This document shows, in pieces, positions 1-49,137 of a stretch of 64,000 bases of DNA. Numbering within the stretch: the first letter of the stretch is position 1; each line of letters starts with the position of its first letter. The notes under the pieces were generated by a model. That model did no database searches, was not told the DNA's origin, and was given only the letters and a program-made list of their open reading frames with translations. Both the position numbers and the translations under genes were made by a program. The DNA is from Candidatus Omnitrophota bacterium (lineage in GTDB: Bacteria; Omnitrophota; Gorgyraeia; 2-01-FULL-45-10), in assembly GCA_026387175.1 (NCBI GenBank), contig JAPLME010000011.1:1856-65855 (forward strand), in the 5' to 3' direction.

Positions 1-3000
1 CATAACTGGTTTAACGGTACTGCCGGTAATGTCTACTGGACCAACGCTTCAGGTGATGGCAAATGGTCCACGGCAGCTAACTGGTCAACCGGTGTTATTC
101 CACAGACAACAGACTCAGTTGTGTTCAATGCTACCTCGACCACAAACTGTTCAGTTAACCAGGCAGCTACGGTCACCAACCTCACTCTTGACACAGGTTA
201 CACCGGCACGGTTACCTTAGGTGCAACTTCAGGACAAGATCTTACCGTAACTAACTCTATCGCCATTAACACCAACGGCGGCATACTTGTTGACAACGGC
301 AGAGTAGTGAACTTTAAGAATGTTGCAATTGTTTCTGAAAGTAATCACCTGAATTCTACTGGCAACTGGAAGCAAACAGCCAGCGGAAATATATCGGCTT
401 ATTATCCCGAAGCTTTTAATAGCCTTGAATTGGCAAGCGGAGTTACCGCGACCTTAACCAATAGCATAAGTGTGAGGAAAGTTATTCTTGGCAGTAATGC
501 TACAATTACCGGAAATACAAGCTATCGTCTTTGGATATCTCCCACGGCAGATAATTTTATTACTCAGGGCACAGGCTCAAATATTTCTTTGCCAATTCAT
601 ATAACTGGTATAACCAGTAATATAAACCAAGGCGCCTTGAATGTTTCCGGGGCTGTTTTCCTTCGTGATAGCAACAATAAAATTTTGACCATGACTGGGG
701 ATTGGAATATTGGCACGTTGACGATATGGGGAACCAACGCGACTGGCTCCGTAGTTACCATTGATACCAACGGAAATAACTTAACTATAACAGGCGATTT
801 AGCTATATCAAACGGAGCCGTCAATTATGCCAATCAACAACTTGGCAAAATCCTCTTTAAAACCGGAAATCATACAATTACAGGTGATGTATATATCCTT
901 GGCCAAGGCCAATACACCCACGGCTACATTGACTTTGGCTCAAGCACGGTGAATGTAGGGGGGAACCTTGACTTTAGATACGCCTCAGTTACTCCCGGAA
1001 CATCAACTGTAAACCTTACCGGCGCTACCACTGCCAATATCTATAGTATTGTGGATTATACTTATAAAGACGCTACCTTAGATAATGCGGTATTGAATAC
1101 AGCGCCGTTCTATAAATTAACCTCAACCGTAGCAGGGAAGACCGTTAAATTTGAAGCAGGGAAGACCGTAACGATAGCCAATAACCTAAACCTTGCCGGA
1201 ACCGGAACAGGCATCAATCTCTTAACCTTAAACTCTACCACTTCCGGCACTGCCGCGAAACTAAATGTCGCGAGCGGCGCTACAGTTACCGGCATGAATT
1301 ACTTAAGTGTCAAGGATTCCGACGCTTCGAGCGGCAAGGGTATCGTCGCATCTAATTCGACCAATGTTAGTAATAATACCAACTGGTTCTTTGGCGCCGC
1401 CGGCAGTAATTATTGGGTTAATAACTCAGGCGACGGCAAGTGGTCCACTGCCGCTAACTGGTCCACCGGTAGCGTGCCAACTTCGGCTGACAATGTTGTG
1501 CTTAACTCCGCCTCAGCTTCAAACTGCAGTTTCGATACAGGGGTGGCTAATACCACAGTCGCTAGCCTCACTCTGGACACAGGCTATACCGGCACTCTGA
1601 CCTTAGCGCAAGGTATTACGGTCACCGGAACGCTTAAAGTAACCCAAGGCACATTTGACGCCGCTACCTATAATGTAAATGCCGCTAACTTCACTTCCAC
1701 AGGAATATTGGCTCGAACACTTAACTTAGGGACAGGGAGTACCTGGACCATATCAGGTAACTGGGACTCTTCAGGCGGTAATATTACGGTTAATCCAGGT
1801 ACCTCAACCGTTACTCTCACCGGAGACGGCACAGTTAAAGCCTGTCCCAGCGTTACTACTTTCTATAACCTCTCAGCGGCCGCATCAGGCATGACCACTA
1901 CTATTGCCCGGGATCCTTCTAAGAATATGTGGGTGGCGGGGGGATGGGGCGTTAATAACTACTTTGCCTACTCTTCTGACGGGATTACTTGGACAGGCTT
2001 GGGCACAAACACATGCCTTACCACCGTCCATAACATCTGCGGGAATGGTTCTAAGTTCGTGGCGGTAGGTACTGGCCCTAGTTCCATTGCCTACTCTACT
2101 AACGGGATTACCTGGACAGGCTTGGGCACAAGTATATTCTCAGGTAATGGCGCCTTTGGCGTCTGCTGGAACGGCTCTAAGTTCGTAGCTGTAGGGCATG
2201 GCGCTAATACCATTGCCTACTCTTATGATGGCATTGCCTGGGCAGCCGCTCCAGGCAGTACAAACATATTTTCAATCAACGCAAACGGCGCCGACATCTG
2301 CTGGAACGGCTCTAAGTTCGTTGCTGTAGGAGACGGAACTAATACCATTGCCTACTCCTCTGATGGCATTAACTGGACAGGCTTGGGCACAAGTATATTC
2401 TCAAGCTATGGCAAAAGCGTTGCCTGGAACGGCACTCGCTTTATAGCAACAGGTTCTGGCAATAGTACTCTTGCCTATTCCTCTGACGGTATTACCTGGG
2501 TAGGCTTAGGCACAAGCATATTCTCAAGCTATGGCTGGGGCGTCGCCTGGAACGGCACCCGTATTATAGCAACAGGCGCTGGCACCAATACCATTGCCTA
2601 CTCTTCTGATGGTATTACCTGGGTAGGCTTAGGCTCAAGTATATTCATAACCTTCGGAGGCGGCATCTGCTGGAATGGTTCTAAGTTCGTCGCTGGCGGG
2701 CAAAGCCCTGGCAGCGCCTATTCAACTGATGGGATCACCTGGACAAGCGGTGGAGTCCCAATGGCAGTCGGCTACGGCGTTTGCTCCATCCCAGCCCCCA
2801 AACTCGTTCCACCTATCCTATCAGATGACATAAAGGTCTCAAATAACCTCACATTAGGTGGAGGTACACTCACTCGTAACGGCACCGACCAGATAGCCTT
2901 AACCTTAACTAGCGCCACCCCTACAGTAACATTAGGAGGCTCTACGATTAGTAGCGGCACAATTATCAGATACGCTCCCGCAGCAGGCTCAGGCGCTACC

Positions 3001-6000
3001 ACTGTCACTATCCCAGGAGGCGCCTACAGCGGAGCTAAGATCGAAGCCTATACTAAGCTTAATTATAGCGTCGCCCAGCCCCAAGGAGCTGTCACATATC
3101 AGTTAGGGGGGAGCATCACCTCATTAGCCAATCTAAACATCTACGCTGATGTAGGGCTACCAGCCACTACATTCAGCTTAGTAAATGGCTCTAATAATTA
3201 TAACCTTACCTCTAATAGCCTTACATTAGGTAAAGATGAAGTAACTAACGGATCTGTCACATTTAATTCAGGAAGTGGCACAGTAGCTCTACCGTCACTT
3301 ACAAACCTCGTTCCTTCCACTAATAATAGCGGCTTACACACTCTTAACCTTAACACATCCACCTGGAATGTGGCAGGGGACTGGGATACCTCAGGCAATA
3401 ACATTATACTTAATCCAAGCACCTCAACTGTTAACCTTACCGATAACGGTATACTTAAGACTAACCCCTCTACCACAAGCTTCTATAACCTATCCTGCGC
3501 GGTCACAGGTAAGACCACAACAGTTGCCCGGGACCCTTCTAAGAATATGTGGGTAGCGGCAGGCGAAGGCACCAACTCTCTTGCCTACTCTTCTGATGGT
3601 ATTACCTGGGTAGGCTTAGGCACAAGTATATTATCATACCGTGGCCGAGGCGTTGCCTGGAACGGCACCCGTTTCGTAGCAACAGGCGCTGGCGCCGACT
3701 CCCTTGCTTATTCTTCCAATGGGATTAATTGGACAGGCCTTGGCTCAAGCATATTCTCCGGCACTGGCCGCTACGTTGCCTGGAACGGCACCCGTTTCGT
3801 AACAGTAGGCACTGGCGCTAACTCCATTGCTTACTCCTCCGACGGTACTAATTGGACTGGGGTGACTACCACAAGCATATTCTCAGCCTATGGCTACGGC
3901 ATTGCCTGGAACGGCACCCGCTTCGTAGCAACGGGCAGCGGCACCAACAACTCCATTGCTTACTCCTTCGATGGCATTACTTGGACAGGCCTTGGCACAA
4001 GCATATTTTCAAGCAGTGGTACCGGCATTGCTTGGAACGGCACCCGTTTCGTGGCAGTGGGTAGTGGCACCAACTCCATTACCTACTCTTCCGATGGCAT
4101 TACCTGGACCGGTTTAGGTAAAAGCATATTCTCAGTCAATGGCTACGATGTTGCCTGGAACGGCACCCGTTTCGTAACAGTAGGCACTGGCACCAACTGC
4201 ATTGCCTACTCTTCAGATGGCATCACCTGGACAGGTTTAGGCACAAGTGTATTCTCAAGCTATGGCTACAGCATCGGCTCTTGCCCTGCTCCTAAACTTA
4301 CTCCACCCGTCCTAAGCGATGACATACCGGTCTTGAATACCCTCACCTTAGGCGGCGGCACACTCACCCGTAACGGCACCGACCAGGTAGCCTTAACATT
4401 ACGTAAGGACACCGGCAATTTCTTAGTGTTAAATAACTCCACGATCAGTAATAATGCTATTATCCGCTTCGCTCCTCTGGCTAACGCCTCAAGTCCTAAG
4501 ACTGTCTCTATCCCCGGAGGCGACTACGGCACAGCTCAAGTAGAAGCCTATGTCCAGACTAATAACGCTGTAGCCCAGCCTCAAGGAGCTATCAGCTATC
4601 AACTAGCGGGAAATATCGCGGGGGCAAACAGCTTAAATATCTACGCTGACTCTAATCTCTCCACAACCTTTGGCTTAAATAGCTACAATCTTTATACCGC
4701 TACTCCAGGGCTCCTCTATTTAGGTAAAGACTGTGCTCAAGGCGCAGTTACCTTTAATTCAGGTGCAGGCGCGGTAACCTTAGCCGCAACACCTCTCTCA
4801 AGCATAGTCGCGGATAACGCCGGAAGCCACACGCTCAATATGAACTCTTCCACCTGGAATATCTCCGGTGACTGGTGTCCTGAAGGTCTGACAAGCGGCA
4901 CCTCCAGCTCACTCAGTGTAGCCCCCAGCACATCCACTGTCAATATCACCGGCACCGGCACTACCACAATCTATGGCTCAAAGACCGCTACTCCTTCGAC
5001 ACCGTTTAATAACCTGTATACTCCTGTCGGCGGCTTAACTGACAAAACTATCAAGGTCAATGCCGGAAGCACACTTCAGATAGCCGGTATTCTGGGATTG
5101 CGGGGACAGGGCGAGAGCAGCCCGCTTAATTTCCAAAGCACTACCGCAGGAACTGCAGCTAATCTTAACGTTCTAGGCTCGACCGCCAATATGCAATACC
5201 TTAATGTCACAGACTCCAATGCTTCGGGCGGGAAGAAGATTCTCGCGTGTTCTTCCACTATTGACACCTACAGCTTGAATCATAACTGGGTTAACGGCAT
5301 TGTCGGTAATGTCTATTGGACCAATGCCTCTGGCGACGGCTTATGGTCCACCGCGGCTAACTGGTCCACAGGAGCTGTGCCGGTTTCGACAGACTCAGTC
5401 GTATTCAACGCTACCTCGACCACACCCTGCTCGGTTAACCAAGCAGCGACGGTTACAAACCTCACTATGGACACAGGATACACCGGCACAGTGACTTTAA
5501 GCGCAACGTCAGGACAGGATTTAACCGTTACAGGCTCTATTACCATTAGTACCAACAGCGGTACGCTAGTAGATAATGGACGAACAGTTAATTTCAAGAA
5601 TGTCTCTATTGCTTATGAAAACACGCCCGTGCATCTTACTTCTACGGGTAATTGGAAAATGATTTCCAGCGGAACTATTTTTGGCCCTCAAGATAGTTCT
5701 AAAATTAATAGCCTTGAGCTGGCAGCCGGAGTTACCGCGAATTTGTTGACAAATTGCACTGTTAACATAAGAAACCTTATCCTTGGAAATAATTCCGTGC
5801 TTACCGGTTATTATATGATAATTGTGCCTACAACCAATAATTTTATTACCCAGGGTACCGGAGCAACTATTTCTGCGACTTTAGAGATTTGTCCAGGTGA
5901 CATGAACCAGGGCGCTCTGACTACATCCGGACCTGTAAAGATTACCTGGGGCGCTAACCGTACTTTGACCATGACCGGAGATTGGAATATTGGTGGATAC

Positions 6001-9000
6001 CTTATGGTATTTGGTTCATCAAGTTTTGGCACAACCGGAATGATGACCCTGGACACTAACGGCAAAAATCTTACTGTAGGCGGTGACTTACAATTAGGAA
6101 ATAGTGACTCTTCGTATGCCAACGATTTTCTCGGAAAAATTCTGTTTAAGAACGGTACCCACACTATCGGAGGCAAAATATTTGTTATGAACGGAAACAC
6201 TCCTTCAACCTGCTACACCCATGGCTACTTTGACTTTGGCCAAAGCACGGTAAACGTAGGGGGGAACCTTGACTTTAGGTGCGCCTCAGTAACTCCCGGA
6301 ACTTCAACCGTAAATCTTACCGGCACTACTGCCGCCACGATTTATTCAATAGTTGACTATGCCTATAAAGACACCATCTTAGACACTCCGGTATTGAACA
6401 CAGCGCCGTTCTATAATTTAGCCTCAAGCGCGGCAAGCAAGATCATTAAATTTGAGGCAGGCAAGACCGTAACAGTAGCCAATAATCTAAGCCTTGCCGG
6501 TGCAAGCGGTAACCTCTTAACCTTAAACTCTACTACCGCGGGCACTGCAGCTAACCTGAATATTTTAGGCACAGCCACCGGTATGAACTACCTGAGTGTT
6601 AAGGACTCCAATGCTTCAGGCGGGAAAGGTATCATCACTTATAACTCCACAAATGTTAGCAACAATACCAACTGGTTCTTTGGCACCGCCGGTAATAATT
6701 ACTGGCTCAATGCCTCCGGCGACGGCTTGTGGTCCACACCCGCTAACTGGTCCACAGGCATTGTGCCGGTCTCGGGCGACAATGTTTATTTCAACACGAC
6801 CTCAACTTCAGACTGCAGTTTCGATACAGGAGCGACCAATACGACAGTCGCAAGCCTTACCTTAGATACAAATTACACCGGTACCCTGACCTTAGCGCAA
6901 GGTATTACAGTCACCGGAACACTTAAAGTGACCCAGGGGACATTTGACGCCGCTACCTATAATGTAAACGCCGCTAACTTCACTTCCACAGGAGCCTTAG
7001 CTCGTACACTAAACTTAGGAACAGGGAGTACTTGGACCATTGCAGGCAACTGGGACTCATCAGGAGGTAACATCACAGTTAACCCCGGTACTTCAACAGT
7101 TACTCTTACAGGAACCGGCACAGTTAAAGCCTGTCCCAGTGTCACTACTTTCTATAACCTCTCAGCGGCCGCGTCAGGCAAGACTACGACGATTGCCCGG
7201 GATCCGTCGAAGAATATATGGGTGGCGACTGGCGTTGGCGCTAACACTCTTGCCTACTCTTCTGATGGTACTAATTGGACAGGCTTGGGCTCAAGTATAT
7301 TCTCAGGCAATGGTTACGGCGCTGCCTGGAACGGCACCCACTTCGTAGCAACGGGCTATGGCACCAACTCCCTTGCCCACTCTTATGACGGTATTATCTG
7401 GACTGGCCTAGGCACAAGTATATTCTCAACCCAAGGCCTTGGCATCTGTTGGAACGGCACCAAGTTTGTGGCTGTAGGAGAAGGCACTAATACAATTGCC
7501 TACTCCTCTAATGGGATTACCTGGACAGGCTTAAGCTCAAGCATATTCTCAGTCTTTGGCGATGGCGTTGCCTGGAACGGCACACGCTTCGTCGCAGTAG
7601 GCTATGGCACCAACTCCATTACCTATTCCCCCGATGGGATTACATGGACTGGGGTGACCGGCAAAAGTATATTCTCAGATTACGGCATGAACATTGCCTG
7701 GAACGGCACCCGCTTCGTCGCAGTAGGCCAAGGCACCAACTCCCTAGCTTACTCTTCTGACGGTATTATATGGATAGGTTTAGGCACAAGCATATTCTCA
7801 ACTTCTGGCCGCGGCGTCGCCTGGAACGGCACCCGCTTCGTCGCAGTAGGTTGGGGCACCAATTCCATCGCTTACTCTTCTGACGGCATCACCTGGACAG
7901 GACTCGGCTATAGCGGATTATCATCCCACGGCAACAGCGTTGCCTGGAACGGCACTAGCTTTGTAGCAATAGGCTTAGGCACTAACAATATTGCCTACTC
8001 TTCCGATGGCATTACCTGGACTGGAGTAACCGGCACAAGCATATTCTCAGTCAATGGTGTTGGCGTTGCCTCTTGCCTTGCCCCCAAACTCACTCCACCC
8101 ATCCTTAGCGATGGCATAAAGATCACAAATGGTCTTACACTAAACGGCGGCACACTCACTCGTAACAGCACCGACCAGGTAGCCTTATCCTTAACGAGCA
8201 ATACTCCTACATTAACATTAGGCTCTTCCACTATCAGTAATAGCGCTATTATTAGATATGCCCCTGTGGCCACTTCAGGCGCTACCACCGTCACTATCCC
8301 CGGAGGCGCTTACTCAGGCGCCAAGATAGAAGCTTATTCTAAGACTAATTATGGTGTTACCCAGCCTCAAGGGTCTATAACATACAAATTAGGGGGCAGT
8401 ATCACCTCAGCAGCTAATCTAAACATCTACGCAGATGTAGGACTACCTAGCACTACATTCAGCTTAGTAAATGGCGCCAGTAACTATAACCTCACCTCCA
8501 CATCCCTTACAATAGGTAAGGATGAAGTAACTAACGGCACTATTACATTTAACTCTGGAAGCGGCACAGTAGCTCTTGCCTCACTTACAAACTTAGTGCC
8601 TTCCACTAATAATAGCGGTCTACACACATTAAACCTCAATACATCCACCTGGAATGTGGCAGGGGACTGGGATACATCAGGCAATAACATCATACTTAAT
8701 CCAAGCACCTCAACCGTTAACCTTACAGGCTCAGGTACACTAAAGACCAGCCCGAACACTACAAGCTTCTATAACTTATCCTGCGCGGCATCAGGGAAGA
8801 CCACTACAGTCGCCAGAGATCCTTCTAAGAATATATGGGTGGCGGCAGGCCAAGGCACCAACTCTCTTGCTTATTCTTATGATGGTATTAACTGGGTAGG
8901 TTTGGGCATAAATATATTCGCGATCAACGGCTATGGTGCTTGTTGGAATGGCTCTAAGTTCATTGTCGTAGGCCAAGGCACTAACACCCTTGCCTATTCC

Positions 9001-25032: not shown

Positions 25033-25053
25033 TCTAAAAACGAGGATTTATAT

Positions 25054-26415: not shown

Positions 26416-26426
26416 TAAAGGCTGTA

Positions 26427-26660: not shown

Positions 26661-26662
26661 AG

Positions 26663-26689
26663 CAGCTTTCAGCAAAAAACTGATAGCTG
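26663..26689 (+). promoter_or_regulatory. Intergenic RNA stem-loop (10-bp stem with one mismatch, 7-nt A-rich loop) between atpC and atpF
   Basis: cagctttcag-caaaaaa-ctgatagctg. The same motif recurs after atpD. Confidence 0.35.
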
Positions 26690-26705
26690 TAACAAGGAGT
26701 CATAA

Positions 26706-27422: not shown

Positions 27423-27434
27423 AGAGGCGCTGAT

Positions 27435-27647
27435 ATGCGAAATCTTATAATAATTCTGGTGATGTTCGTTACGATACTCGGGCCCTCAGCGGTCATCGCG
27501 GCCATAGGCTTTGCCTCGATAAACGCTTTGGGAAGGAACCCGTCATCCGCTCCGAAGATATTAAGCGCGATGATAGTTTCCCTGGTATTTGCCGAAGCCA
27601 TCGCGGTGATCGCTCTTCTGGTATTGTTCCAGTTATTTGGGAGGTAA
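27435..27647 (+). CDS. atpE: ATP synthase subunit c (70-aa two-helix proteolipid)
   Basis: GAGAGG RBS. Helix-loop (GRNP)-helix architecture with a conserved carboxylate in helix 2 (VFAEAIAVIALL). Its position lies between the b and alpha genes. Confidence 0.7.
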   Translation: MRNLIIILVMFVTILGPSAVIAAIGFASINALGRNPSSAPKILSAMIVSLVFAEAIAVIALLVLFQLFGR

Positions 27648-27661
27648 GGCAAACCGCTATA

Positions 27662-30048: not shown

Positions 30049-31453
<1,405 letters not shown>

Positions 31454-31455
<2 letters not shown>

Positions 31456-31477
31456 CTTTCAGAAAAAGCTGAAAGCT
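31454..31477 (+). promoter_or_regulatory. Intergenic RNA stem-loop (9-bp perfect stem, 6-nt loop) overlapping the atpD stop codon, upstream of gspE
   Basis: agctttcag-aaaaag-ctgaaagct. No T-run follows, so it is not a canonical intrinsic terminator. It is a possible processing or attenuation site. Confidence 0.35.
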
Positions 31478-31494
31478 GAAACAGGAGACGAACA

Positions 31495-33201
31495 ATGGCG
31501 TTACGATTGGGAGATATTTTAGTCGAGAAGGGAATAATAACGCAGGAGGAACTCAATACCGCTCTTGCGGAGCAGCAGAGGACGAAGGAGGCCCTGGGGC
31601 AGATATTGATCAGGATGGGTTTCGTTGCGGAGAGAGATATGCTTCAGATCCTGGCGAAACAGCAGGGTATCCCGTTCGTCGAGCTGAAGATGAAAGATAT
31701 TGATGATAAGGTCCTGAAGAATGTGCCCGCCAAATTTGTCTGGCACTATAAGATAATGCCGATAAGCCTCGACGGCAATATCCTTACGGCCGCCATATCC
31801 AATCCGTTCGATATGTGGCCGATCGACGACCTGGAGACGCACCTCGGGTTCAAAGTGGAGAAGGTCCTGGCTACGTCCGCGGATATAATGGAGGCGATAA
31901 AGAAATATTACGGGGTAGGAGCGGAGACGATAGACCGTATATTATCCGATGATGTGCGTCCCGCCGGAGAGACATCCACCGCGGGAGAAGAAAAAGTAGA
32001 GGACCTCGAAAAACTGGCGGAATCGGCTTCGGTGATAAAGCTGGTGAACCAGATATTGCAGGAAGCCATAACGGACAGGGCGACGGATATACATTTTGAA
32101 CATTTCAGGGGTGAACTGGTCCTGCGTTACAGGATAGACGGCATACTGTATGATACGCCGGTCAGCGAGAAGATAAAATATCTCCATCCGGCGATCGTCT
32201 CCAGGATAAAGGTCATGTCGGGCCTCGATATCGTCGAACGCAGGCTGCCTCAGGACGGCCGCGCGAAGGTGAAGATAGGAAAGAGCGAATATGAGCTGCG
32301 CGTGTCGATAATGCCGACGCTCTACGGCGAGAATATAGTCATAAGGGTCCTGCCCACCACGATGCTTTTCAATATCGCGGATCTGGGTATGTCCCATAAC
32401 GACAGGAGCATCATCGAGCAGCTGCTGAAAAAATCGCACGGCATAATCTTTGTCACGGGCCCGACGGGCAGCGGCAAGACCACCACCCTGTACGCCTGTC
32501 TCAGCAAGCTGAACTCGCGGGAAAGAAAGATCCTTACCATCGAGGACCCGATCGAATATGAATTGGGCGGCATCTCGCAGACGCAGGTCAACGCGAAGAT
32601 AGACCTTACATTCGCCAAGATGCTCAGGAGCATGCTGAGGCACGACCCGGACGTGATGATGGTCGGAGAGGTCAGGGACCTGGAGACCGCCGAGATCACT
32701 ATCCAGACGGCCCTCACGGGGCACCTGGTATTCTCCACGCTCCATACAAACGACGCGGCAAGCGGCGTGACCCGTTTAGTTGATATAGGCATAGAGCCGT
32801 ATCTGGTGGCCTCTTCCGTTATAGCTTTTATCGCGCAGAGGCTCGTCAGGGTCATATGCGCTGCTTGCAAGGAGAAAGTGACGCTGGCAGAGCTGGGTTT
32901 TAAAAACGATCAGTTGAAGATCGAGGGATTCGACTCGAATCACAACACTGTTGTATATAGAGGTAAAGGCTGCAAGGCCTGCGGCGGCACCGGTTACGTA
33001 GGCAGGGCGGCCATATATGAGATCTTATTGATAAAGGATGAGATCAAGGACCTTATTTTAACTAAATCGCCGGCGCATATCATAAAAGATAAAGCCACGC
33101 AGCTCGGGATGCATACCTTAAAGCAGGATGGATGGGACAAGGTGGTGGCGGGCGTAACCACGCCGGAAGAGGTATTGAGAGTGACACAGCTGGAAGGATA
33201 A
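31495..33201 (+). CDS. gspE: T2SS/type IV pilus assembly ATPase (GspE/PilB family)
   Basis: AGGAG RBS. N-terminal T2SSE_N domain, Walker A GPTGSGKTTT, tetracysteine CAACKEK...CKACGGTG. Confidence 0.9.
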   Translation: MALRLGDILVEKGIITQEELNTALAEQQRTKEALGQILIRMGFVAERDMLQILAKQQGIPFVELKMKDIDDKVLKNVPAKFVWHYKIMPISLDGNILTAAISNPFDMWPIDDLETHLGFKVEKVLATSADIMEAIKKYYGVGAETIDRILSDDVRPAGETSTAGEEKVEDLEKLAESASVIKLVNQILQEAITDRATDIHFEHFRGELVLRYRIDGILYDTPVSEKIKYLHPAIVSRIKVMSGLDIVERRLPQDGRAKVKIGKSEYELRVSIMPTLYGENIVIRVLPTTMLFNIADLGMSHNDRSIIEQLLKKSHGIIFVTGPTGSGKTTTLYACLSKLNSRERKILTIEDPIEYELGGISQTQVNAKIDLTFAKMLRSMLRHDPDVMMVGEVRDLETAEITIQTALTGHLVFSTLHTNDAASGVTRLVDIGIEPYLVASSVIAFIAQRLVRVICAACKEKVTLAELGFKNDQLKIEGFDSNHNTVVYRGKGCKACGGTGYVGRAAIYEILLIKDEIKDLILTKSPAHIIKDKATQLGMHTLKQDGWDKVVAGVTTPEEVLRVTQLEG

Positions 33202-33214
33202 CAAAAATCTACTG

Positions 33215-34480
33215 ATGCCGATATACAGTTATACCGCAAAAAAAGGCCCGACCGAAATAGTAAAAAGCGAGATAGAGGCCGAATCTGAGGATAAGGCCGT
33301 CGTCATGATAGAGGCTATGGGGTTCTTTCCCATCAAGGTGGTTGAATTAAGACCGCCGTCGGCGACGCCAAGGGCGCCTGAGCGCGCCAAGCCGGAAGCT
33401 CCGCCAGTCGCCGCTAATAAAGAACAGGGCCTCTCTTCAGTGAAAGTCGGCGCGCATGATATGGACACCTTCATGTGGCAGCTGGCCAGCCTGATAAAAT
33501 CGAGCATTCCTCTCCTGCGCGCCTTATCCCTGATAGCGCGGCAGACTAAGAATAAGTCGCTTAAGGCGGTGGCCGGCGACCTGGAGCTCAAGATAAAGCA
33601 GGGAGAGCTGCTCTCCGCGGCGATGAGCAAATACCCTAATCTCTTTAATAACCTTACCGTAAATATGATAAAGGCCGGAGAGAAGAGCGGTTCTCTCGAC
33701 GAAGTGCTGTATAAGCTGGCGGAATACCGCGAGAAAGAGCAGGAGATGAAGCGCAAGATACAGTCGGCCCTTGCCTATCCGATGGTCGTTGTCGCGGTCG
33801 GTATAGGGACGATATTTATGATGTTCACGTATTTTCTGCCCAAGCTGCTGAAATTATTCGAGAATATGAAACAGGAGCTGCCGCTGCCTACGAAGCTATT
33901 GATCGCGACCAGCAAATTTATGTCCAGTTACTGGTATGTATTTGTAATAGGCATCGTTTTCGTGATCGCGGTAATCTTCAGAAATAAACCCGGAAGTAGG
34001 AAGAAGTTTATGCTCGACATGTTCTGCCTGCGCGTGCCTTTTATCAATAAATTTATAAAGACATCCGAGATAGCGCGATTTGCCAGGTCGCTGGGGCTCC
34101 TGCTTAAAAACGGCATACCCGTCTATGAGAGCCTCGATCTCGCGGCTAAGACGCTGGATAATCAGGCGCTGAAGACGCAACTGGCGCAAGCATCCGCGGT
34201 TATCGTTAACCAGGGCTGCACGATATCGGAAAGTTTCAGGCGCACAGGAGTGTTCCCGGAGTTCACGATAAATATGATAGCGGTAGGCGAGGAAGGCGGG
34301 AGACTGGAGGAATCGCTCGCCGAGATAGCCGCCTCATATGAAAAGGAAGTGGAACAGACCATAAAGGTCATGACATCGATGATAGAGCCCCTGCTGATAC
34401 TGATCGTCGGGGGATTTGTCGGCTTCATCGTATTCGCGATGCTCCTTCCTATATTGAATATGGGGGGGATGGGCGGATGA
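33215..34480 (+). CDS. gspF: T2SS/T4P inner-membrane platform protein (GspF/PilC family)
   Basis: 421 aa with a duplicated GspF domain, three TM segments and a GxxxxEE-like motif (IAVGEEGGRLEESL). Confidence 0.85.
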   Translation: MPIYSYTAKKGPTEIVKSEIEAESEDKAVVMIEAMGFFPIKVVELRPPSATPRAPERAKPEAPPVAANKEQGLSSVKVGAHDMDTFMWQLASLIKSSIPLLRALSLIARQTKNKSLKAVAGDLELKIKQGELLSAAMSKYPNLFNNLTVNMIKAGEKSGSLDEVLYKLAEYREKEQEMKRKIQSALAYPMVVVAVGIGTIFMMFTYFLPKLLKLFENMKQELPLPTKLLIATSKFMSSYWYVFVIGIVFVIAVIFRNKPGSRKKFMLDMFCLRVPFINKFIKTSEIARFARSLGLLLKNGIPVYESLDLAAKTLDNQALKTQLAQASAVIVNQGCTISESFRRTGVFPEFTINMIAVGEEGGRLEESLAEIAASYEKEVEQTIKVMTSMIEPLLILIVGGFVGFIVFAMLLPILNMGGMGG

Positions 34481-35253
34481 GCTTGGCGCTGAAGGTATGT
34501 CTATTCCTTCTCCTCCTGTGCCCGGGGGCGCGGGCCGAGAATTGGCAGGAGTTAAAGGGTGAGCATTTCGAGATATTTTATATCGAGGATCCAGCCTTCG
34601 CGCAGGAGACGCTGACGCAGGCCGAGAAATATTACGAGAAGATAGCCTCGGACCTGGGTTATTCAAGATATGATAATTTCTGGCAATGGGATAACAGGGC
34701 GAAGATATATATTTACAAAAACCGGGAAGATTTTTTAAAGGCCACCGGTAAGAAGCCATGGATTTACGGGACCGCGATATATAATGAACGGACGATAATA
34801 AGCTACAGATGGAGCCAGGGATTCTTTGACATATTACTGCCTCACGAGCTGGGCCATCTCATATTCAGGGATTTTGTAGGGTTTAAAGGGGAGGTCCCTC
34901 TGTGGCTGGATGAGGGCATTGCTCAGTGGGAGGAGACCAACAAGCGCCAGCGGGCGATTTATATGGTCAGGAGCCTTGTCGCCAAAAAAGAATTCATACC
35001 CCTGACCGAATTGATGCGCTTCAATTCGAGCAGCGAGAATGATTTTGCTCTCTCCGCCAAACTTTACGCCCAGGCGGTCACGCTGGTAGGCTATCTTATA
35101 GAGAAGTACGGCCCGACGAGATTCGCGCAATTCTGCCGGAGTCTGCGCGATGGAAAGAGCATAGACGAGGCGCTGTCATTCGCTTATACCGATTCAATAC
35201 GGAATATAAACGAACTGGAAAAAGGATGGATAAAGTACTACGGAGGAGAATAA
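34477..35253 (+). CDS. Secreted HExxH zinc-metallopeptidase-like protein (peptidase MA-like) embedded in the pilus/T2SS operon
   Basis: The start overlaps the gspF stop (ATGA). Signal peptide MSLALKVCLFLLLLCPGARA. HELGH motif in LLPHELGHLIFRDF with a downstream Glu (WLDEGIAQWEE). Confidence 0.55.
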   Translation: MSLALKVCLFLLLLCPGARAENWQELKGEHFEIFYIEDPAFAQETLTQAEKYYEKIASDLGYSRYDNFWQWDNRAKIYIYKNREDFLKATGKKPWIYGTAIYNERTIISYRWSQGFFDILLPHELGHLIFRDFVGFKGEVPLWLDEGIAQWEETNKRQRAIYMVRSLVAKKEFIPLTELMRFNSSSENDFALSAKLYAQAVTLVGYLIEKYGPTRFAQFCRSLRDGKSIDEALSFAYTDSIRNINELEKGWIKYYGGE

Positions 35254-35254
35254 G

Positions 35255-35674
35255 ATGACGGGAAGAAAAAAAGGCTTCACCCTTATTGAACTTATGATAG
35301 TCGTGGTAATAATAGTGGCGCTGGCGTCGATGGTCGTGCCGCGCTTAAGCGGACGTACGGAACAGGCTAAAAAAGCCGTCGCGAAAGCGGATATCGGTTC
35401 AAACATATCGATGGCGCTGAAGTTATACGAGCTTGATAACGGGAATTTCCCCACCACGGAGCAGGGCCTGGCCGCCCTGGCCTCTTCTCCATCCTCCGCG
35501 CCCGTTCCCAGCAACTGGAACGGCCCATATCTTGAAACCATACCTGCGGATCCCTGGGGCAACCCTTATAAATATAAATGCCCGGGCAGTCATAATAAAA
35601 CGACCTATGATCTCTATTCGGTAGGCAAAGACGGCTTGGAAGAAACGGATGATGATATCAAGAATTGGAAATAG
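35255..35674 (+). CDS. gspG: Major pseudopilin / type IV pilin-like protein (GspG family)
   Basis: Prepilin leader and N-methylation motif MTGRKKGFTLIELMIVVVII, 139 aa. Confidence 0.85.
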   Translation: MTGRKKGFTLIELMIVVVIIVALASMVVPRLSGRTEQAKKAVAKADIGSNISMALKLYELDNGNFPTTEQGLAALASSPSSAPVPSNWNGPYLETIPADPWGNPYKYKCPGSHNKTTYDLYSVGKDGLEETDDDIKNWK

Positions 35675-36152
35675 GGTATCCGGCTCAAGACGCGGGTTCA
35701 CGCTTCTCGAAACGCTGATGGCCATCTCCATTTTAGCCGTAGGGACGGTCAGCGTCCTTCGGGCCTATTCTACATCGGTAAGCGCCATCGAAAGGGCGCA
35801 GTATAATATAGACGCGGGTTGCCTATTGAAGTCAGTCATGGGCCTTATCGAGGAGAAGGCTATCACCGGAAAGGGGACGTCGCCGGGCGAGTCATCCGGC
35901 GAGTTAAACTCTTCATCCGGTATAAAGATGGACACGACGCAGTCGGATAAATGGGAATGGAGCGAAGAAGTGAAGGATGCCGGCCTCGAGATAAAGAAAC
36001 CGAAAGAAACGCCCGCATCGGGGGAGAAGAAGCCGGAAAAAGAGGTCTATTCCTTAAACGAGGTCAAGCTTACCGTCGTGAACCACGAACGGAGCCCGTC
36101 GAATAAAGTAAGCGTGATAACGTACATGGAGAACAGCAGTGCCGCGCGCTGA
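35649..36152 (+). CDS. Minor pseudopilin (GspH/GspI-like)
   Basis: GFTLLETLMAISILAVG prepilin-type N-terminus. The start is uncertain because the leader before GFT is long with the 35649 ATG, which overlaps gspG by 26 nt. Confidence 0.55.
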   Translation: MMISRIGNRVSGSRRGFTLLETLMAISILAVGTVSVLRAYSTSVSAIERAQYNIDAGCLLKSVMGLIEEKAITGKGTSPGESSGELNSSSGIKMDTTQSDKWEWSEEVKDAGLEIKKPKETPASGEKKPEKEVYSLNEVKLTVVNHERSPSNKVSVITYMENSSAAR

Positions 36153-36885
36153 CGGGGCCAAAGGCTTTACGCTGGTGGAGATGATGCTGGCGGCGGGCAT
36201 ACTGGCGATAATAGGATTAACCATAGTCTCGACTTTTTCCGGCGGGATGAATATTTTTTACAGGATAGAGGGCCAGACCGCGGCCAAAACGGATGTGCTC
36301 GTCGCGATGGAGAAGATGGAGAGGGACCTGAGAGACACATTCTGTTACACCGGCATAGACTTCATCGGCAGCTCCAGGAAGATGGCCTTTCCCGGCCTCA
36401 TAAGGGCATTCAACGATAAGGGCTTGCCCGAGGAGTCGCTGGGCTCGATCTCGTACTATCTCGACGATAGGATGAGGAAAAGGGCCCTCTCCAGAGAAGT
36501 GAAAAGATATTCTTATGCCGTCAAAAAAGAAAGTTCCCCGCCAGGCGACATTCTGCCCTTGGCGGAGATAGAGGATGTGAATTTCAAATATTATACCTAC
36601 GATCCGGAATCGGAATCTTACAACTGGGCGAGTTCATGGGATAAGACCGAAAAGATAAAGAAGAAGAAAGAGGAGGGGGTCGCGACCGGCGACGTGCTCC
36701 TTAAAGACAGAGAAGAGAACATCCCTCTGGGGGTCAAGATTGAAATAAGCTATAAGGAGAACGGCAGGACTATTACGCTGAACAGGGCCGTATTTTTGCC
36801 GACGGCCGTATCATTGAACCTCGCGAAGATAAAGGCAAAGTCTAAAACGGCGAACGCGACAGGGGCGGCGAGTGAGAAGAAATAG
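36139..36885 (+). CDS. Minor pseudopilin (GspJ-like)
   Basis: MPRADGAKGFTLVEMMLAAGILAII prepilin-type N-terminus, 248 aa. Confidence 0.6.
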   Translation: MPRADGAKGFTLVEMMLAAGILAIIGLTIVSTFSGGMNIFYRIEGQTAAKTDVLVAMEKMERDLRDTFCYTGIDFIGSSRKMAFPGLIRAFNDKGLPEESLGSISYYLDDRMRKRALSREVKRYSYAVKKESSPPGDILPLAEIEDVNFKYYTYDPESESYNWASSWDKTEKIKKKKEEGVATGDVLLKDREENIPLGVKIEISYKENGRTITLNRAVFLPTAVSLNLAKIKAKSKTANATGAASEKK

Positions 36886-37900
36886 AAGAGGGAGCGTCCT
36901 TATCGTGGTCCTGTGGAGCCTGTTCTTTATGGCGATGCTTGCCGTGGCCATAAATTCATATGTCCGGCCGCAGATGGAGTTTTCAAGCAGGTTATCGGCC
37001 AATACCAGGATGTATTATATCGCGCGCGCCGGGGTCCAGAGGGCGATCTTCGAGGTCGAGAACGATGAAACCGAAACGTACGATAGCCTGTATGACTCAT
37101 GGGGCAACAACGACGCGGCTTTCAATAATGTGTCCTTTGGCGGCGGTAAGTTCAGCGTTATAAGGCCGGAGCCGCCGGGCCCCTCCGCCGGCAAGGGGAC
37201 CAGCGCCGCCCAGGCGGGCGAATCCAAGCCGCAGTACGGCCTTATAGACGAGGAGAGCAAGATCAATATAAATAAGGCCCCGCATGACGTCCTGAAGAAT
37301 TTATTTGAGAAGATGGCCGGGGTTGAGTCGAAGGAAGCAGACGGTATAGCGGATTGTATACTGGATTGGGTCGACAAGGACGACTCGCTTCATAAGGACG
37401 GTAAGGAAGACGACTATTACCAGTCGCTCGGCGATCCCTATCATTGCAAAAATGGCCCTTTTGAGGCCATAGAAGAGCTTCTCCTTGTAGCGGGAGTGAC
37501 GCGGGAAAGTTTCGATAAGGTGAAGGATATTATTACGATATACGGCAATGGCACAGTTAATGTCAATACCGCGGACGCGCGGGTGCTGGAGGTCCTCGGC
37601 TTAACTAAGGAGGCCTCCGAAAGCATAGTAAGCTTCCGTTCCGGACGAAATTCAAAAAAAGAGGGAGAGATTCCGGACAATGTCTTTACGAATGTTTCGG
37701 CGATAGCGGGTGTGTTGAACAAGGCGGGCGCCAGTGATGGCGGCGCCAGCCTCATCAGCGCCTCGGCGATGCTCGGCGTGAAATCCGATAATTTCAGAGG
37801 CACCGTTAAGGGTTCGCTCGGGAGCTCGGGGCGATCGGAGACGATAACGTTCGTGTACGACAGAAATGATAAGATAATAAAGTACTGGAGAGAAGAATGA
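36872..37900 (+). CDS. gspK: Minor pseudopilin GspK-like
   Basis: N-terminus RRGSVLIVVLWSLFFMAMLAV is typical of GspK. 342 aa. Confidence 0.6.
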   Translation: MRRNRRGSVLIVVLWSLFFMAMLAVAINSYVRPQMEFSSRLSANTRMYYIARAGVQRAIFEVENDETETYDSLYDSWGNNDAAFNNVSFGGGKFSVIRPEPPGPSAGKGTSAAQAGESKPQYGLIDEESKININKAPHDVLKNLFEKMAGVESKEADGIADCILDWVDKDDSLHKDGKEDDYYQSLGDPYHCKNGPFEAIEELLLVAGVTRESFDKVKDIITIYGNGTVNVNTADARVLEVLGLTKEASESIVSFRSGRNSKKEGEIPDNVFTNVSAIAGVLNKAGASDGGASLISASAMLGVKSDNFRGTVKGSLGSSGRSETITFVYDRNDKIIKYWREE

Positions 37901-39414
37901 TCGGCGGCATAAAAAGTTTCATAAATAATATAAAGATACCGCGCTTTCCGCGAAATATGAAATTCATGAAATTTGATTTTAAGGCCGGCGCCGTCGCGGT
38001 GGAGATAGGGAACGACTGGCTGAAGATATCCCAGAAGAGCCCCGCCAGGGGTAACGAGTTCATCTACCAGATCAGCCTCACCAAGCTGGCTGAGATCAAA
38101 GGCGGAGTAGCGCTCGCCATAGACGATATCTTCAAGGACCTCAAGCTTGACAGGCAGCATGTGGTAGCCTATATCCCGCGCCATCTGGTCACCGTGCGCA
38201 TGCTGGACCTGCCCGCCACGGATCCCAAAGAGATAAATGATATGATCAATCTGCAGGTGGGTAAACAGACGCCCTATTCGAAGGAAGAGATAGTGTCGTC
38301 GCATAAGATAATAGAGATCGGCGCCGCCGGATATGCCAAGGTTATGCTGGTCATAGCGGCGCGCAATATCATCAACGAACGCACGGATACGCTTGTAAAG
38401 GCCGGCCTGGACATAAAGAGGGTCGCCATATCTTCCGAGGGAGTTTTCAACTGGTTTACCACCATTCACATGCCGCGCTTAAAACTGGATGATTCTCAAG
38501 GTGTGGTAGTGGTGGATATAGATTCCAACTATTCGGATTTCATAGTTATACGCAGAGGGAAGATGGTCTTTACCAGAAACATATTCATAGGCGCAAATCA
38601 CCTCATGCAGGACTCGGACGAGTGGCGGGATAAGTTTGCGGAGGAATTGAAACGGTCCTTCGAACGGCACCAGAGCGAGGAAAAGAACGTAAAGATAGTA
38701 AAGATGTTTTTGAGCGGCGCGGGAGCGAATATAAAAGGGCTGGATATTGTCTTGAGCGCCGGCATCGGGCTCCCCATTGAGGGCATAGACCAGCTTAGCG
38801 ATATCCGCGCGAGAAATAGCATCGAAGCTTTGCGGGCCGAGAATTTCAGGTACGTTTCGCTGACCCAGCTTCTCGGGGTGTCGATGACCGACAAGGAGCC
38901 GCAGATCGATCTCACGACCGGCGAGCAGAAGGTCCAGCATCTGATGGACACGAAGAGGAAACAGCTTACCGTAATGGGGATATTGATAGCATCGATCGTT
39001 ACAATGCTGTCGTTCCTGTGCCTGACGGATATTTATAATAAGAACGCGTATCTATCGAAGCTGAAACGCATGGCGACAAAGATAGGCGCGGACGCGGATG
39101 ATATCGAAAAGATGCGGGCGGTGATCAGCCTGGTGGAGAAACGCCTGGATTCCCGCGGTTCTTCGATAGAGGTGATAAATGAGATATACAAGATCACCCC
39201 TAAAGAGATATATCTTACGGATATAAATATAGACGAAAAACAGACGGTGGTTCTGAAGGGCGGGGGCCTCGCGATGTCGGACGTATTTAAATATGTCAAG
39301 AAGCTCGAAGAATCGGATATGCTCGAGAATGTCAAGACCACATACACGACGACCAAGAAAGATAAGGATACCGAATTCGCGGAGTTTGAGATATCCTGCA
39401 CTTATCAAAAATAA
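37897..39414 (+). CDS. gspL: GspL-like assembly protein (PilM-like actin-fold N-domain fused to a PilN-like TM and periplasmic domain)
   Basis: 505 aa. Cytoplasmic actin-like region, mid-protein TM LTVMGILIASIVTMLSFLCL, C-terminal periplasmic domain. Confidence 0.6.
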   Translation: MIGGIKSFINNIKIPRFPRNMKFMKFDFKAGAVAVEIGNDWLKISQKSPARGNEFIYQISLTKLAEIKGGVALAIDDIFKDLKLDRQHVVAYIPRHLVTVRMLDLPATDPKEINDMINLQVGKQTPYSKEEIVSSHKIIEIGAAGYAKVMLVIAARNIINERTDTLVKAGLDIKRVAISSEGVFNWFTTIHMPRLKLDDSQGVVVVDIDSNYSDFIVIRRGKMVFTRNIFIGANHLMQDSDEWRDKFAEELKRSFERHQSEEKNVKIVKMFLSGAGANIKGLDIVLSAGIGLPIEGIDQLSDIRARNSIEALRAENFRYVSLTQLLGVSMTDKEPQIDLTTGEQKVQHLMDTKRKQLTVMGILIASIVTMLSFLCLTDIYNKNAYLSKLKRMATKIGADADDIEKMRAVISLVEKRLDSRGSSIEVINEIYKITPKEIYLTDINIDEKQTVVLKGGGLAMSDVFKYVKKLEESDMLENVKTTYTTTKKDKDTEFAEFEISCTYQK

Positions 39415-39426
39415 CGGGAACCGAAC

Positions 39427-39972
39427 ATGATCAATATGGAATTTTTTTATAAATTATCGAAGAAGGAAAAGATAGGGCTGATGGCGGCCATCGTAGTCAT
39501 AGCGCTTATGCTCATCGACAGGCTCGTCATAAGCCCCATAGGCAACAGGATCCAGCGTATAGACCAGGAGATAAAATTCAGCGAGAAAAAATTGAGCCGC
39601 GACCTGCGTAATATGAATAATAAGGATATCATCGAAAGAGAGTATAAGAAGTATAAAAATTATGTGAAGAAGAGCTCCGTCTCGGACGAAGAAGATGTGG
39701 CAAATATACTCGGGGAGATAGAGGGCCTGGCGCGTTCATCCAGCGTCAGCCTGGTCGATATAAAGCCGCAGGCTCCGAAGCGGGCCGATTTTTACAAAGA
39801 GTACGCTATCGAGGTGGAAGTGGAAGGCAGCATGGAACAGGTCATCACTTTCCTGCACGACCTGAATAGCTCCGCGCAGTTATTGAGAGCGGTGAAACTC
39901 CGTATCGGTCTTAAAGACAAAGAATTATCCGCTATAAAAGCGTCCCTCCTTGTGACCAAGATCTCAATATAA
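39427..39972 (+). CDS. GspM/PilO-like bitopic assembly protein
   Basis: 181 aa. N-terminal TM IGLMAAIVVIALMLI, coiled coil, and a C-terminal alpha/beta domain. It is the last gene of the operon. Confidence 0.5.
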   Translation: MINMEFFYKLSKKEKIGLMAAIVVIALMLIDRLVISPIGNRIQRIDQEIKFSEKKLSRDLRNMNNKDIIEREYKKYKNYVKKSSVSDEEDVANILGEIEGLARSSSVSLVDIKPQAPKRADFYKEYAIEVEVEGSMEQVITFLHDLNSSAQLLRAVKLRIGLKDKELSAIKASLLVTKISI

Positions 39973-40011
39973 ACCGTTTCGATATAAGCGATATAAGGAC
40001 CGGGTCCTGTG

Positions 40012-40043
40012 CCAATAGGGGAAGTGTCCCCTTGGCCGTTTTT
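40012..40043 (+). terminator. Rho-independent terminator ending the giant-gene/atp/T2SS co-directional gene block
   Basis: ccaa-ta-gggga-agtg-tcccc-ttgg hairpin followed by ccg-ttttt. It overlaps the stop of the convergent minus-strand gene. Confidence 0.4.
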
Positions 40044-40365: not shown

Positions 40366-40437
40366 ATATCCTCCTTACGGTATCCTCACATCTAAAGTAT
40401 ATCATAAAACTCGCTATAAGGGGAACGGAGGCGAATA

Positions 40438-43497: not shown

Positions 43498-43555
43498 TAT
43501 TGACTAAGCCCGCCATTCATGTTAGTTTAGATTTCGATATTTTGGAATATATTGT

Positions 43556-49115: not shown

Positions 49116-49137
49116 AAACTCTATCTAACAAGGTGAA

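Follow-up and report, generated by a model that had tools for sequence, protein, structure and literature searches.

Analysis of a 64,000-nucleotide stretch of the Candidatus Omnitrophota contig JAPLME010000011.1 (positions 1,856 to 65,855; hereafter the window, whose own numbering is used throughout) identified a giant open reading frame (ORF), a gene for a smaller partner protein, a set of F-type ATPase (atp) genes and a type II secretion system (T2SS)-like pseudopilus gene set, and this order of giant ORF, partner, atp genes, GspE, GspF, pseudopilins, PilMN and PilO is kept in approximately 100 related loci. The module is genuine, strongly conserved and co-diverging. Our interpretation, to which we assign a probability of roughly 0.5, is that these genes specify a co-inherited four-part cell-surface contact module within the Omnitrophota locus kind 'symbiotic F-type ATPase / type-4-filament'. 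Its first part would be a giant protein with a Sec-type signal in relatives, a lineage-variable distal body and a conserved base of ~640 amino acids (aa). The second would be an inner-membrane-anchored periplasmic partner to which a cytoplasmic GGDEF cyclase is fused in some lineages, the third an accessory F-type ATPase (epsilon, b/delta, c, alpha, gamma and beta, with no a gene in the locus), and the fourth a T2SS-like pseudopilus (E, F, G, two minor pseudopilins, K, PilMN and PilO) that carries an MshEN domain on GspE.

Gene order and co-divergence

Relatives of the locus were collected in two surveys, where a scan with alpha over one genome per GTDB species gave 13 Omnitrophota loci at 69–79% identity and a metagenome scan with a gamma alignment gave 80 more loci, down to 37% gamma identity. 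The preliminary description of this stretch, made from the sequence alone, had guessed an Omnitrophota origin, and the closest loci (L001–L013) are indeed Omnitrophota metagenome-assembled genomes, with identical partner and gamma proteins named Candidatus Omnitrophica at NCBI. Among the 13 GTDB-species loci, tblastn recovered the same order and strand in every sufficiently long locus, the full order being giant tail, partner, epsilon, b/delta, c, alpha, gamma, beta, gspE, gspF, peptidase, gspG, two pseudopilins, gspK and pilMN. The corresponding features of the window are as follows.

1–25032, plus strand: giant ORF of at least 8,343 aa; open frame, G/S/T/N-rich, no transmembrane (TM) helix
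23098–25029, plus strand: conserved C-terminal 'base' of the giant protein, aa ~7,700–8,343 (~640 aa), found by tblastn and including the last ~40-aa helix
25054–26415, plus strand: partner, 453 aa; no Pfam or NCBIfam family; AlphaFold2 (AF2) model with predicted local distance difference test (pLDDT) score of 80; conservation profile
26379–26660, plus strand: epsilon, N-terminal beta-sandwich only (PF02823, 2.4e-11; TIGR01216, 42.9 bits, cut-off 67)
26706–27422, plus strand: b/delta hybrid peripheral stalk with TM anchor, b coiled coil and C-terminal half of delta (ATP-synt_B, OSCP)
27435–27647, plus strand: c subunit, 70 aa, with RNP loop and TM2 Glu (FAEA) (PF00137, 1.6e-6)
27662–29164, plus strand: alpha, with P-loop GDRMTGKT and Arg finger in SVSRIG (TIGR00962, 538.6 bits, cut-off 484.45)
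29161–30048, plus strand: gamma, divergent (PF00231, 1e-27; TIGR01146, 70 bits, cut-off 194)
30052–31455, plus strand: beta, with GGAGLGKT and GERIREG motifs (TIGR01039, 550.2 bits, cut-off 462.85)
31495–33201, plus strand: GspE/PilB-type assembly ATPase with N-terminal MshEN domain and tetra-Cys motif (T2SSE, 2.9e-130; NF053729, 3.6e-20)
33215–34480, plus strand: GspF/PilC platform (T2SSF, 6e-61, two repeats)
34477–35253, plus strand: exported MA-clan zinc metallopeptidase with signal peptide and HELGH (Peptidase_MA_2, 1e-17)
35255–35674, plus strand: major pseudopilin GspG, G↓FTLIE (T2SSG, 2.5e-34)
35649–36152 and 36139–36885, plus strand: two minor pseudopilins, G↓FTL(L/V)E (family match, cleavage motif)
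36872–37900, plus strand: GspK-like minor pseudopilin, no Glu5 (T2SSK_1st, 8e-19)
37897–39414, plus strand: PilM-PilN fusion with GspL-like architecture (PilM_2 and PilN)
39427–39972, plus strand: PilO/GspM-like protein (PilO/T2SSM_b)

The partner gene lies directly before the atp genes in 26 of 27 loci and gspE directly after them in 31 of the 32 loci with enough downstream sequence. By the preliminary description, its proposal would be refuted by relatives that possess the atp and T2SS genes in the same arrangement minus the giant ORF; this check did not refute it, and the loci surveyed here carried a long plus-strand ORF upstream of the partner, running off the fetched 5' end, in 20 of 22 assessable cases. 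Even the most divergent partners (27–44% identity) keep this context, with a large ORF on one side and the ATPase/GspE genes on the other. Sequence identities of the individual parts rise and fall together from locus to locus (rho 0.65–0.89), with values of 0.80 for gamma against partner, 0.87 for gamma against giant protein and 0.89 for beta against gspK.

Insertions of mobile or selfish genes are tolerated without loss of order. In one locus a REP/IS200-like transposase ORF separates epsilon from b/delta (L012:5714–6637); in another, partner and b/delta are separated by an MNT/HepT toxin-antitoxin pair, and beta and gspE by a GIY-YIG ORF (L087:9309–9945 and 15203–15499). Internal permutations of the atp block occur in L090, L153 and L157, with the giant-partner block still directly upstream; the atp order in L090 is alpha, epsilon, c, b/delta, gamma, beta. 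Sequence of 1.2 kb or more beyond pilO is available for six loci; five of them have nothing there that resembles the downstream genes of the window, and none of the six had metallophosphoesterase, LptF/G or trxB matches. In the sixth locus, L157, the module's own pseudopilin genes continue past pilO.

The giant protein and its conserved base

The giant ORF that the preliminary description placed at the 5' end is a single open frame, frame 1 being without a stop from base 1 to 25032, and the gene is truncated by the window edge. A hydropathy scan of the 8,343 aa identified no TM helix (best 19-aa window 1.48, none reaching 1.6). From aa 1 to ~5,430 a super-repeat of ~1,780 aa, built of beta-solenoid-like modules, occurs three times in copies that are up to 93% identical, and from aa ~5,500 the C-terminal ~2,800 aa comprise Ig-like (immunoglobulin-like) segments, coiled coils, an S/T/A/G-rich low-complexity linker and a terminal helix. 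AF2 modelling of one repeat module, with its internal copies as alignment, gave an all-beta model (pLDDT 65.5). A Foldseek search with this module returned nothing significant (best E 0.036), and the best of these non-significant matches, which we use only as a qualitative pointer to a beta-solenoid, were all beta-helix proteins (autotransporter passengers, tapirin, tailspikes). Pfam and NCBIfam matches on the giant protein (Amnionless, LptD_N, Big_1) were sub-threshold or compositional and were rejected as domain assignments.

A W..NWSTG.P motif at aa 22 had made it conceivable that the window starts close to the N-terminus of the protein. This was ruled out, as the motif recurs six times within the super-repeat (aa 22, 481, 1782, 2244, 3589 and 4040), and the true start of the gene may therefore lie well upstream of the window. 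A 5' extension was sought in indexed Logan contigs, which end at the same place. On the DNA level, positions 1–16300 contain three super-repeats of ~5.3 kb, a likely cause of assembly collapse or length variation, and GC skew is negative in the giant gene and positive in the remaining plus-strand genes.

Only the base of the giant protein is conserved in all relatives, as tblastn matches (L008–L174) covered aa ~7,700–8,170 and 8,303–8,341 while the N-terminal parts differed and had bodies of beta-helix/NosD, PKD-like or RCC1/WD40 (RCC1-propeller) type. Searching the last 1,000 aa against a 90%-clustered database gave 10 matches that were mostly fragmentary, so an exhaustive search of representatives was needed to find giant relatives. 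With the base as query this search gave 196 representatives (E<=1e-3), the match always being at the extreme C-terminus of proteins of 2–5.1 k aa (longest 5,125 aa). A Sec-type N-terminal signal was present in 26 of 35 full-length giant relatives; a prepilin motif was found in none of the 35 and an internal TM helix in almost none. Complete giant proteins encoded upstream of the partner in relatives have 6,355, 4,508 and 4,701 aa. A variable body, a conserved C-terminal base and Sec signals together are what one would expect of an exported fibre whose target-binding end varies and whose machine-proximal end stays constant.

The partner protein

The AF2 model of the partner shows a signal peptide, two units each of a beta-sandwich and a three-helix bundle and, after a linker rich in Gly, a conserved juxtamembrane helix and a TM helix at the C-terminus, with a cytoplasmic tail of only ~8 aa in the protein of the window. 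Scans against Pfam and NCBIfam returned no family and PDB searches no specific homologue. The partner family comprised 67 clusters in 5.8e9 proteins and is Omnitrophota only, where named. Six of these clusters, along with L124, possess a GGDEF domain C-terminal to the TM helix. This architecture suggests that the partner is periplasmic and anchored in the inner membrane, where it may dock or sense the conserved base of the giant protein. A role of its TM helix as a plug of the c-ring was considered and is disfavoured, since some partners continue into a cytoplasmic GGDEF domain.

An F-type ATPase with c and b genes and no adjacent a gene

The preliminary description had presented the ATPase as devoid of both stator and channel. 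Its statement on the stator was wrong, as a b/delta hybrid is present in addition to c and the epsilon N-domain, and its statement on the channel stands for this locus, which has no gene for the a subunit. Searches of the 64-kb window gave neither a multi-TM ORF nor an ATP-synt_A match. Unusual gaps in relatives were inspected as possible sites of an a gene and gave other genes, namely the transposase-like ORF in L012, the MNT/HepT pair in L087 and secreted proteins for the ORFs upstream of the ATPase in L158. The supplementary tables of two Omnitrophota papers held no usable per-genome atpB data.

Motifs of catalytic competence are intact in alpha and beta, including the P-loops, the catalytic GERIREG and the SVSR Arg finger. 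The N-terminal residues of alpha normally bind the delta N-domain. Both sides of this contact are missing here, where alpha lacks ~20 N-terminal residues (the H1 helix; PDB alignments start at chain residue 22–30) and only delta ~102–174 is present, fused to b. In the hybrid, residues 5–151 align to b and residues 162–234 to delta residues 102–174, and its best NCBIfam model is N-ATPase subunit b at 64 bits (cut-off 224.7). Epsilon is without its regulatory C-domain and probably starts at the ATG at 26427. The gamma family consists of 175 clusters, every named one being from Omnitrophota.

Of all proteins in the module c is the best conserved, and its TM2 Glu is kept in 61 of 64 c copies across 60 loci. 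Glu is changed to Gly in the remaining three: one is the first of the two c genes of L124, and the other two are the sole copies detected in the atp-only locus L158 and in the T2SS-linked locus L167. From these sequences, the conserved c carboxylate and the b anchor argue for ion translocation. Duplicated c genes were seen in L004, L112, L124 and L155, and two alpha genes in L153 (5819–8663). The ATPase genes of L158 (6986–12391) belong to the same clade as those of the module and have the order epsilon, c, b/delta, alpha, gamma, beta after genes for secreted proteins of 522, 1,097 and 603 aa, and are followed by opposite-strand genes.

Canonical atpA models scored 539–572 bits on alpha, versus 426 for MMOB1660 and 322 for MSC_0619. 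The curated Mycoplasma models (MMOB1660/1670, MSC_0618/0619) gave 425.8 (cut-off 600), 431.8 (850), 322.3 (520) and 414.9 (570), all below threshold, and all alt_F1F0 (N-ATPase) models likewise scored below their cut-offs. The nearest alphas outside Omnitrophota are only 41–48% identical.

The pseudopilus machine and c-di-GMP elements

In line with the preliminary description of a T2SS-like set having an extra peptidase, the pseudopilus genes enclose an HExxH metallopeptidase gene. This peptidase is limited to loci with a gamma identity of at least 49%, plus L123. Scores for the assembly ATPase fell below both the GspE equivalog cut-off (588.5 bits, cut-off 630.25) and that of the PilB model (572 bits, cut-off 675.65). 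PilT and PilQ were not found in the window, and the major subunit matches T2SSG and not a PilA-type pilin.

The MshEN motif for binding of cyclic di-GMP (c-di-GMP) consists of two tandem copies of RLGxx(L/V/I)(L/V/I)xxG(L/V/I)(L/V/I)xxxxLxxxLxxQ (PMC5013675). Residues 4–56 of GspE carry both 24-residue motifs, RLGDILVEKGIITQEELNTALAEQ and ALGQILIRMGFVAERDMLQILAKQ, and NF053729 scores 71.5 bits on the protein (cut-off 38). Both motifs being perfect, the N-domain of GspE is a predicted c-di-GMP receptor. The GspE of one relative (L090:10664–12880, the most divergent module found) has a C-terminal PilZ domain besides MshEN. Taken together, GGDEF-fused partners, PilZ on one GspE and intact MshEN motifs suggest c-di-GMP signalling that runs from the partner, on the periplasmic side, to the ATPase of the pseudopilus.

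Boundaries of the locus and neighbouring genes

The family-supported ORFs from 1 to 39,972 are all on the plus strand, which supports the one-strand locus of ~40 kb in the preliminary description as far as these genes are concerned; the same strand continues beyond 40 kb through all of the at least 37 supported genes up to 63.9 kb. As the whole 64 kb is co-oriented, strand alone does not delimit a 40-kb locus. After the giant ORF seventeen further genes occupy 25054–39972 with spacings of -37 to +45 nt when the small ORFs at 26379–26660 and 27435–27647 are counted, so the reported gaps of at most 45 nt and overlapping starts and stops were borne out by measurement. The locus end reported at ~40.04 kb was likewise recovered as the following feature.

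~40010–40043, plus strand: terminator-like hairpin and U-run, stem-loop GCCAAUAGGGGA-AGUG-UCCCCUUGGC then CGUUUUUA

The first long intergenic gap follows ~40043; a doubtful ORF begins 157 nt further on, and the next gene with family support 465 nt further on. The tight unit ends after 39,972 at the terminator-like hairpin, with loose locus boundaries. Consensus matches in the region were near shuffle expectation for terminator-like elements (26 versus 18.6 ± 4.3) as well as promoter-like elements (32 versus 22.9 ± 5.6), and claims on transcription units are on this account matters of inference. The hairpin region as a whole folded no better than shuffles (z = -0.6).

The doubtful ORF in the gap after the hairpin (40130–40444, 104 aa) has an odd composition and no family match, and is probably not a gene. 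Rfam detected no riboswitch in the window, its sole match being a tRNA-Phe at 43556. This tRNA (43556–43630) sits within a mechanically called, NUDIX-bearing ORF (43552–44193) whose NUDIX domain begins at aa 80, which puts the start of the NUDIX gene well downstream of the listed TTG. Further along the plus strand (46874–58439) are a TolC-HlyD-2xABC-2xABC2 exporter (ABC, ATP-binding cassette), a LamB-type porin and a sugar-binding-protein ABC importer, the porin and importer being at 53–58 kb; the importer recalls the carbohydrate import systems near giant genes reported by West-Roberts et al. The window contains LptF/G, TolC and LamB genes, which mark the source organism as diderm.

Interpretation as a contact module

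In the contact module that we propose, contact would raise c-di-GMP through partner-linked or other cyclases, c-di-GMP would switch GspE on, and the pseudopilus piston would then export or deploy the giant fibre, with a secretin from another locus as its exit. The partner would hold or monitor the base of the fibre, and the co-expressed F-type ATPase would act as a dedicated energy converter of the apparatus. Gene content, motifs, conserved order and co-divergence are direct observations. The contact between partner and base, the standing of the giant protein as cargo, and the direction and coupling of the ATPase are what we infer on top of them, and the localisations are predicted.

Several points weigh against this interpretation, the weakest part of which is the ATPase, whose role the model leaves unexplained. 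A c-ring without an a subunit cannot translocate ions, and in none of the more than 40 related loci was an a gene found between partner and gspE. The secretin GspD, GspC and the prepilin peptidase GspO were not found among the at least 37 proteins of the window and may be encoded at other sites of the genome, which makes outer-membrane export a prediction, and to our knowledge a fibre of 8,000 aa is far above the size of known T2SS cargo. Exceptions to the arrangement also occur. The ATPase of L158 has neither partner nor T2SS beside it, the partner of L124 is expanded and GGDEF-fused with no giant ORF within 3.6 kb, and in L153 the ORF immediately upstream is not a giant one and encodes 789 aa. 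The metallopeptidase is missing from the more distant half of the family. Finally, the results are at the gene level, and physical contact between the parts and their co-transcription are predictions from them.

Comparison with known systems

The preliminary description considered the tethering of atp genes to pilus/T2SS genes undescribed, a claim that does not hold, since Seymour et al. (2023, Nat Microbiol; PMC10066038) had already reported a non-respiratory F-type ATPase beside type-4a pilus (T4aP) clusters in all Omnitrophota classes. ATPase and T4aP genes were within 10 kb on 57 of 66 contigs, alpha grouped with Mycoplasma type 2/3 ATPases, and host attachment or motility was proposed (PMC10066038). 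The locus studied here comes from the same phylum and F-type alpha, beta and gamma genes likewise adjoin type-4-filament genes (beta ends at 31455 and gspE starts at 31495). It belongs to this published ATPase/pilus kind and is for this reason not new as a class. Differences are that the pilus genes score as T2SS-type (GspG, GspK, L-like PilMN) and not as T4aP, and that alpha and beta, as judged by hidden Markov model (HMM) score, lie closer to canonical atpA/atpD than to Mycoplasma type 2/3 models. The published clade placement concerns the alphas of the loci of Seymour et al., while alpha of the window was characterised by HMM scores and identity. In the parts of the main text and supplements available to us, giant ORFs are treated separately with no link to the ATPase/pilus locus, and the description there is without a giant ORF, partner, Fo c and b/delta, missing a or c-di-GMP elements.

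The gliding machinery of Mycoplasma mobile (PMC11864180) similarly combines an accessory F1-derived ATPase, whose alpha is without H1, with the very large surface proteins Gli349 and Gli521 to make contact with host surfaces. Homologues of c and b are missing from its cluster, its beta has an N-extension of ~300 aa and its ATPases dimerise into chains (PMC11864180). It further differs in having no pilus genes and a monoderm cell, whereas b/delta and c genes are present here. The N-ATPase (Dibrova et al. 2010; PMC2881411) is comparable as a second-copy F-type enzyme with no separate delta gene and a long b having the delta C-terminal region. The N-ATPase gene order is atpDCQRBEFAG (PMC2881411), in contrast to epsilon, b/delta, c, alpha, gamma, beta here, where AtpQ, AtpR, extra small membrane ORFs and a are absent and c has the single Glu of the H+ type. 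Relative to canonical F1Fo, the locus has the alpha/beta catalytic motifs and the c carboxylate and lacks the a subunit and a full-length delta.

The pseudopilus genes resemble T2SS and the MSHA system with its MshE ATPase (PMC5013675) in possessing E, F, G, minor pseudopilins, K, L-like and M-like components, both MshEN motifs and the tetra-Cys motif. They differ in the embedded MA metallopeptidase, in the rotary ATPase operon upstream, in a presumed cargo of 4.5–8.3 k aa or longer, and in that the locus has no secretin, GspC or prepilin peptidase. West-Roberts et al. (2023; bioRxiv 10.1101/2023.11.21.568195) described T2SS/Tad-like loci upstream of TM-rich, SecA-bearing Omnitrophota giants ('Archaeovorin'), with a gspD/rcpC/rotamase locus upstream and pilZ genes and sugar importers downstream. 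The likeness lies in an Omnitrophota giant gene near T2SS/T4-like genes, c-di-GMP elements and carbohydrate import genes. Unlike Archaeovorin, the giant protein here has no TM helix or SecA match and is followed by partner, ATPase and pseudopilus genes, and ATP synthase is not mentioned by West-Roberts et al. Archaeovorin loci differ in their arrangement as well as in the class of giant protein that they encode.

A 2026 preprint on 176 complete Omnitrophota genomes found F-type alpha and beta in 125 of the 176, gamma in 30 by KEGG Orthology (KO) thresholds, and V/A-ATPases in most Gorgyraeia. The common alpha and beta, the divergent gamma and these V/A-ATPases fit an accessory, divergent F-type enzyme. 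Four elements of the locus appear to be undescribed. These are the giant exported protein with a constant C-terminal base as a conserved module member, the Omnitrophota-only partner family that is sometimes GGDEF-fused, the c-di-GMP wiring through perfect MshEN motifs on GspE, and an 'Fo without a' gene set in which c and b are kept.

Alternative explanations

The first alternative keeps to the published reading, where the functional unit is the ATPase and a type-4a pilus for host attachment or twitching and the giant and partner genes form a neighbouring, independent adhesin operon kept by vertical descent. The ATPase/T4aP adjacency has been published with no mention of giant ORFs in the parts of that paper available to us, the loci L124 and L153 are without a giant, and all loci come from one phylum, so that shared ancestry contributes to their synteny. 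The adjacency nevertheless survives to 25–30% partner and 37–40% gamma identity despite permutations of the atp genes, and the module takes insertions (transposase, toxin-antitoxin, GIY-YIG) without breaking up, and downstream synteny is lost directly after pilO. The GGDEF domains of partners and the MshEN/PilZ domains of GspE would also be a plausible functional wire between the two halves. On this balance we regard the published reading, taken alone, as unlikely.

In the main alternative, the F-type ATPase would be a generator of torque or force and not an ion pump, comparable to the G1-ATPase of the M. mobile gliding motor. Its c-ring rotor and b/delta stator would work without a and pass force across the membrane, through the partner or GspF/L/M, to the fibre as a 'leg' or tether on the host cell. 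The a subunit is absent at every locus, the ATPase genes are always flanked by the partner gene and gspE, delta has lost its N-domain and epsilon has no regulatory C-domain. The c Glu is lost in three copies, which in L158 and L167 are the only copy detected in the locus. Alpha without H1 is like G1-alpha (PMC11864180), M. mobile likewise pairs giant surface proteins (Gli349, Gli521) with an F1-like motor, and Seymour et al. (2023) group the alphas of such loci with Mycoplasma type 2/3 ATPases. The strong conservation of the c carboxylate and RNP loop (61/64) is, however, hard to explain without ion binding, and alpha and beta score higher on canonical atpA/atpD than on MMOB1660/1670 or MSC_0618/0619, failing the cut-offs of the latter. 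The partner tail of ~8 aa, and longer tails that are a GGDEF signalling domain and no mechanical link, also speak against it, as does the diderm cell, in which force would have to cross two membranes. A mechanical motor is therefore, in our judgement, rather doubtful.

An extension of this idea would unite all four parts in one trans-envelope machine, in which the ATPase, with a c-ring and a reduced stator but no a subunit, would be connected by the partner, the GspF/L/M platform or both to the Sec-exported giant fibre and the pseudopilus, in a mechanical or energetic coupling triggered by c-di-GMP, as a diderm analogue of the leg and motor of M. mobile. By analogy this is conceivable, and we consider it doubtful to a similar degree. 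If true, such a machine would let nanobacteria grip, pull on or drill into host cells.

A switch for retention and release analogous to the Lap system appears improbable. Here the adhesin would be held at its base by the partner, c-di-GMP and the MA metallopeptidase would decide whether it is kept or cleaved, and pseudopilus and ATPase would be secondary. A periplasmic, membrane-anchored and sometimes GGDEF-fused partner, an exported HExxH peptidase within the operon and a conserved giant base fit this scheme. It leaves the ATPase and pseudopilus unexplained, and in the more distant half of the family the peptidase is missing from loci that keep the other parts of the module. Family scans of the window gave no LapG-type cysteine protease, LapD-type HAMP-GGDEF-EAL receptor or type I secretion system (T1SS) with RTX signal, and the giant relatives have Sec signals and not a C-terminal T1SS signal.

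Coincidental adjacency of a housekeeping ATP synthase and a general T2SS beside a large adhesin gene is consistent with alpha and beta passing the canonical atpA/atpD thresholds and with a 64-kb stretch so uniformly co-oriented that strand bias alone means little, but we reject it as highly improbable on account of conserved order and co-divergence, since the order is kept in ~30 independent loci whose parts co-diverge, neither the gamma nor the partner clade extends beyond Omnitrophota, the ATPase has a reduced make-up (no a, delta N-domain or epsilon C-domain) and the literature puts such ATPases outside the respiratory clade.

Implications for Omnitrophota

Omnitrophota are abundant, uncultured, ultra-small bacteria that are thought to live on other cells, and the present results bear on their mode of attachment and on the function of their giant genes. 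The window and its approximately 100 related loci tie giant ORFs, a non-respiratory F-type ATPase and type-4-filament genes, which were discussed separately before, into one conserved, co-diverging gene module. This module also offers two handles that can be tested at the bench, namely the small, module-specific partner family and the predicted c-di-GMP switch. A natural F-type ATPase with c and b and never an adjacent a additionally provides a case for the recruitment of rotary ATPases to new jobs.

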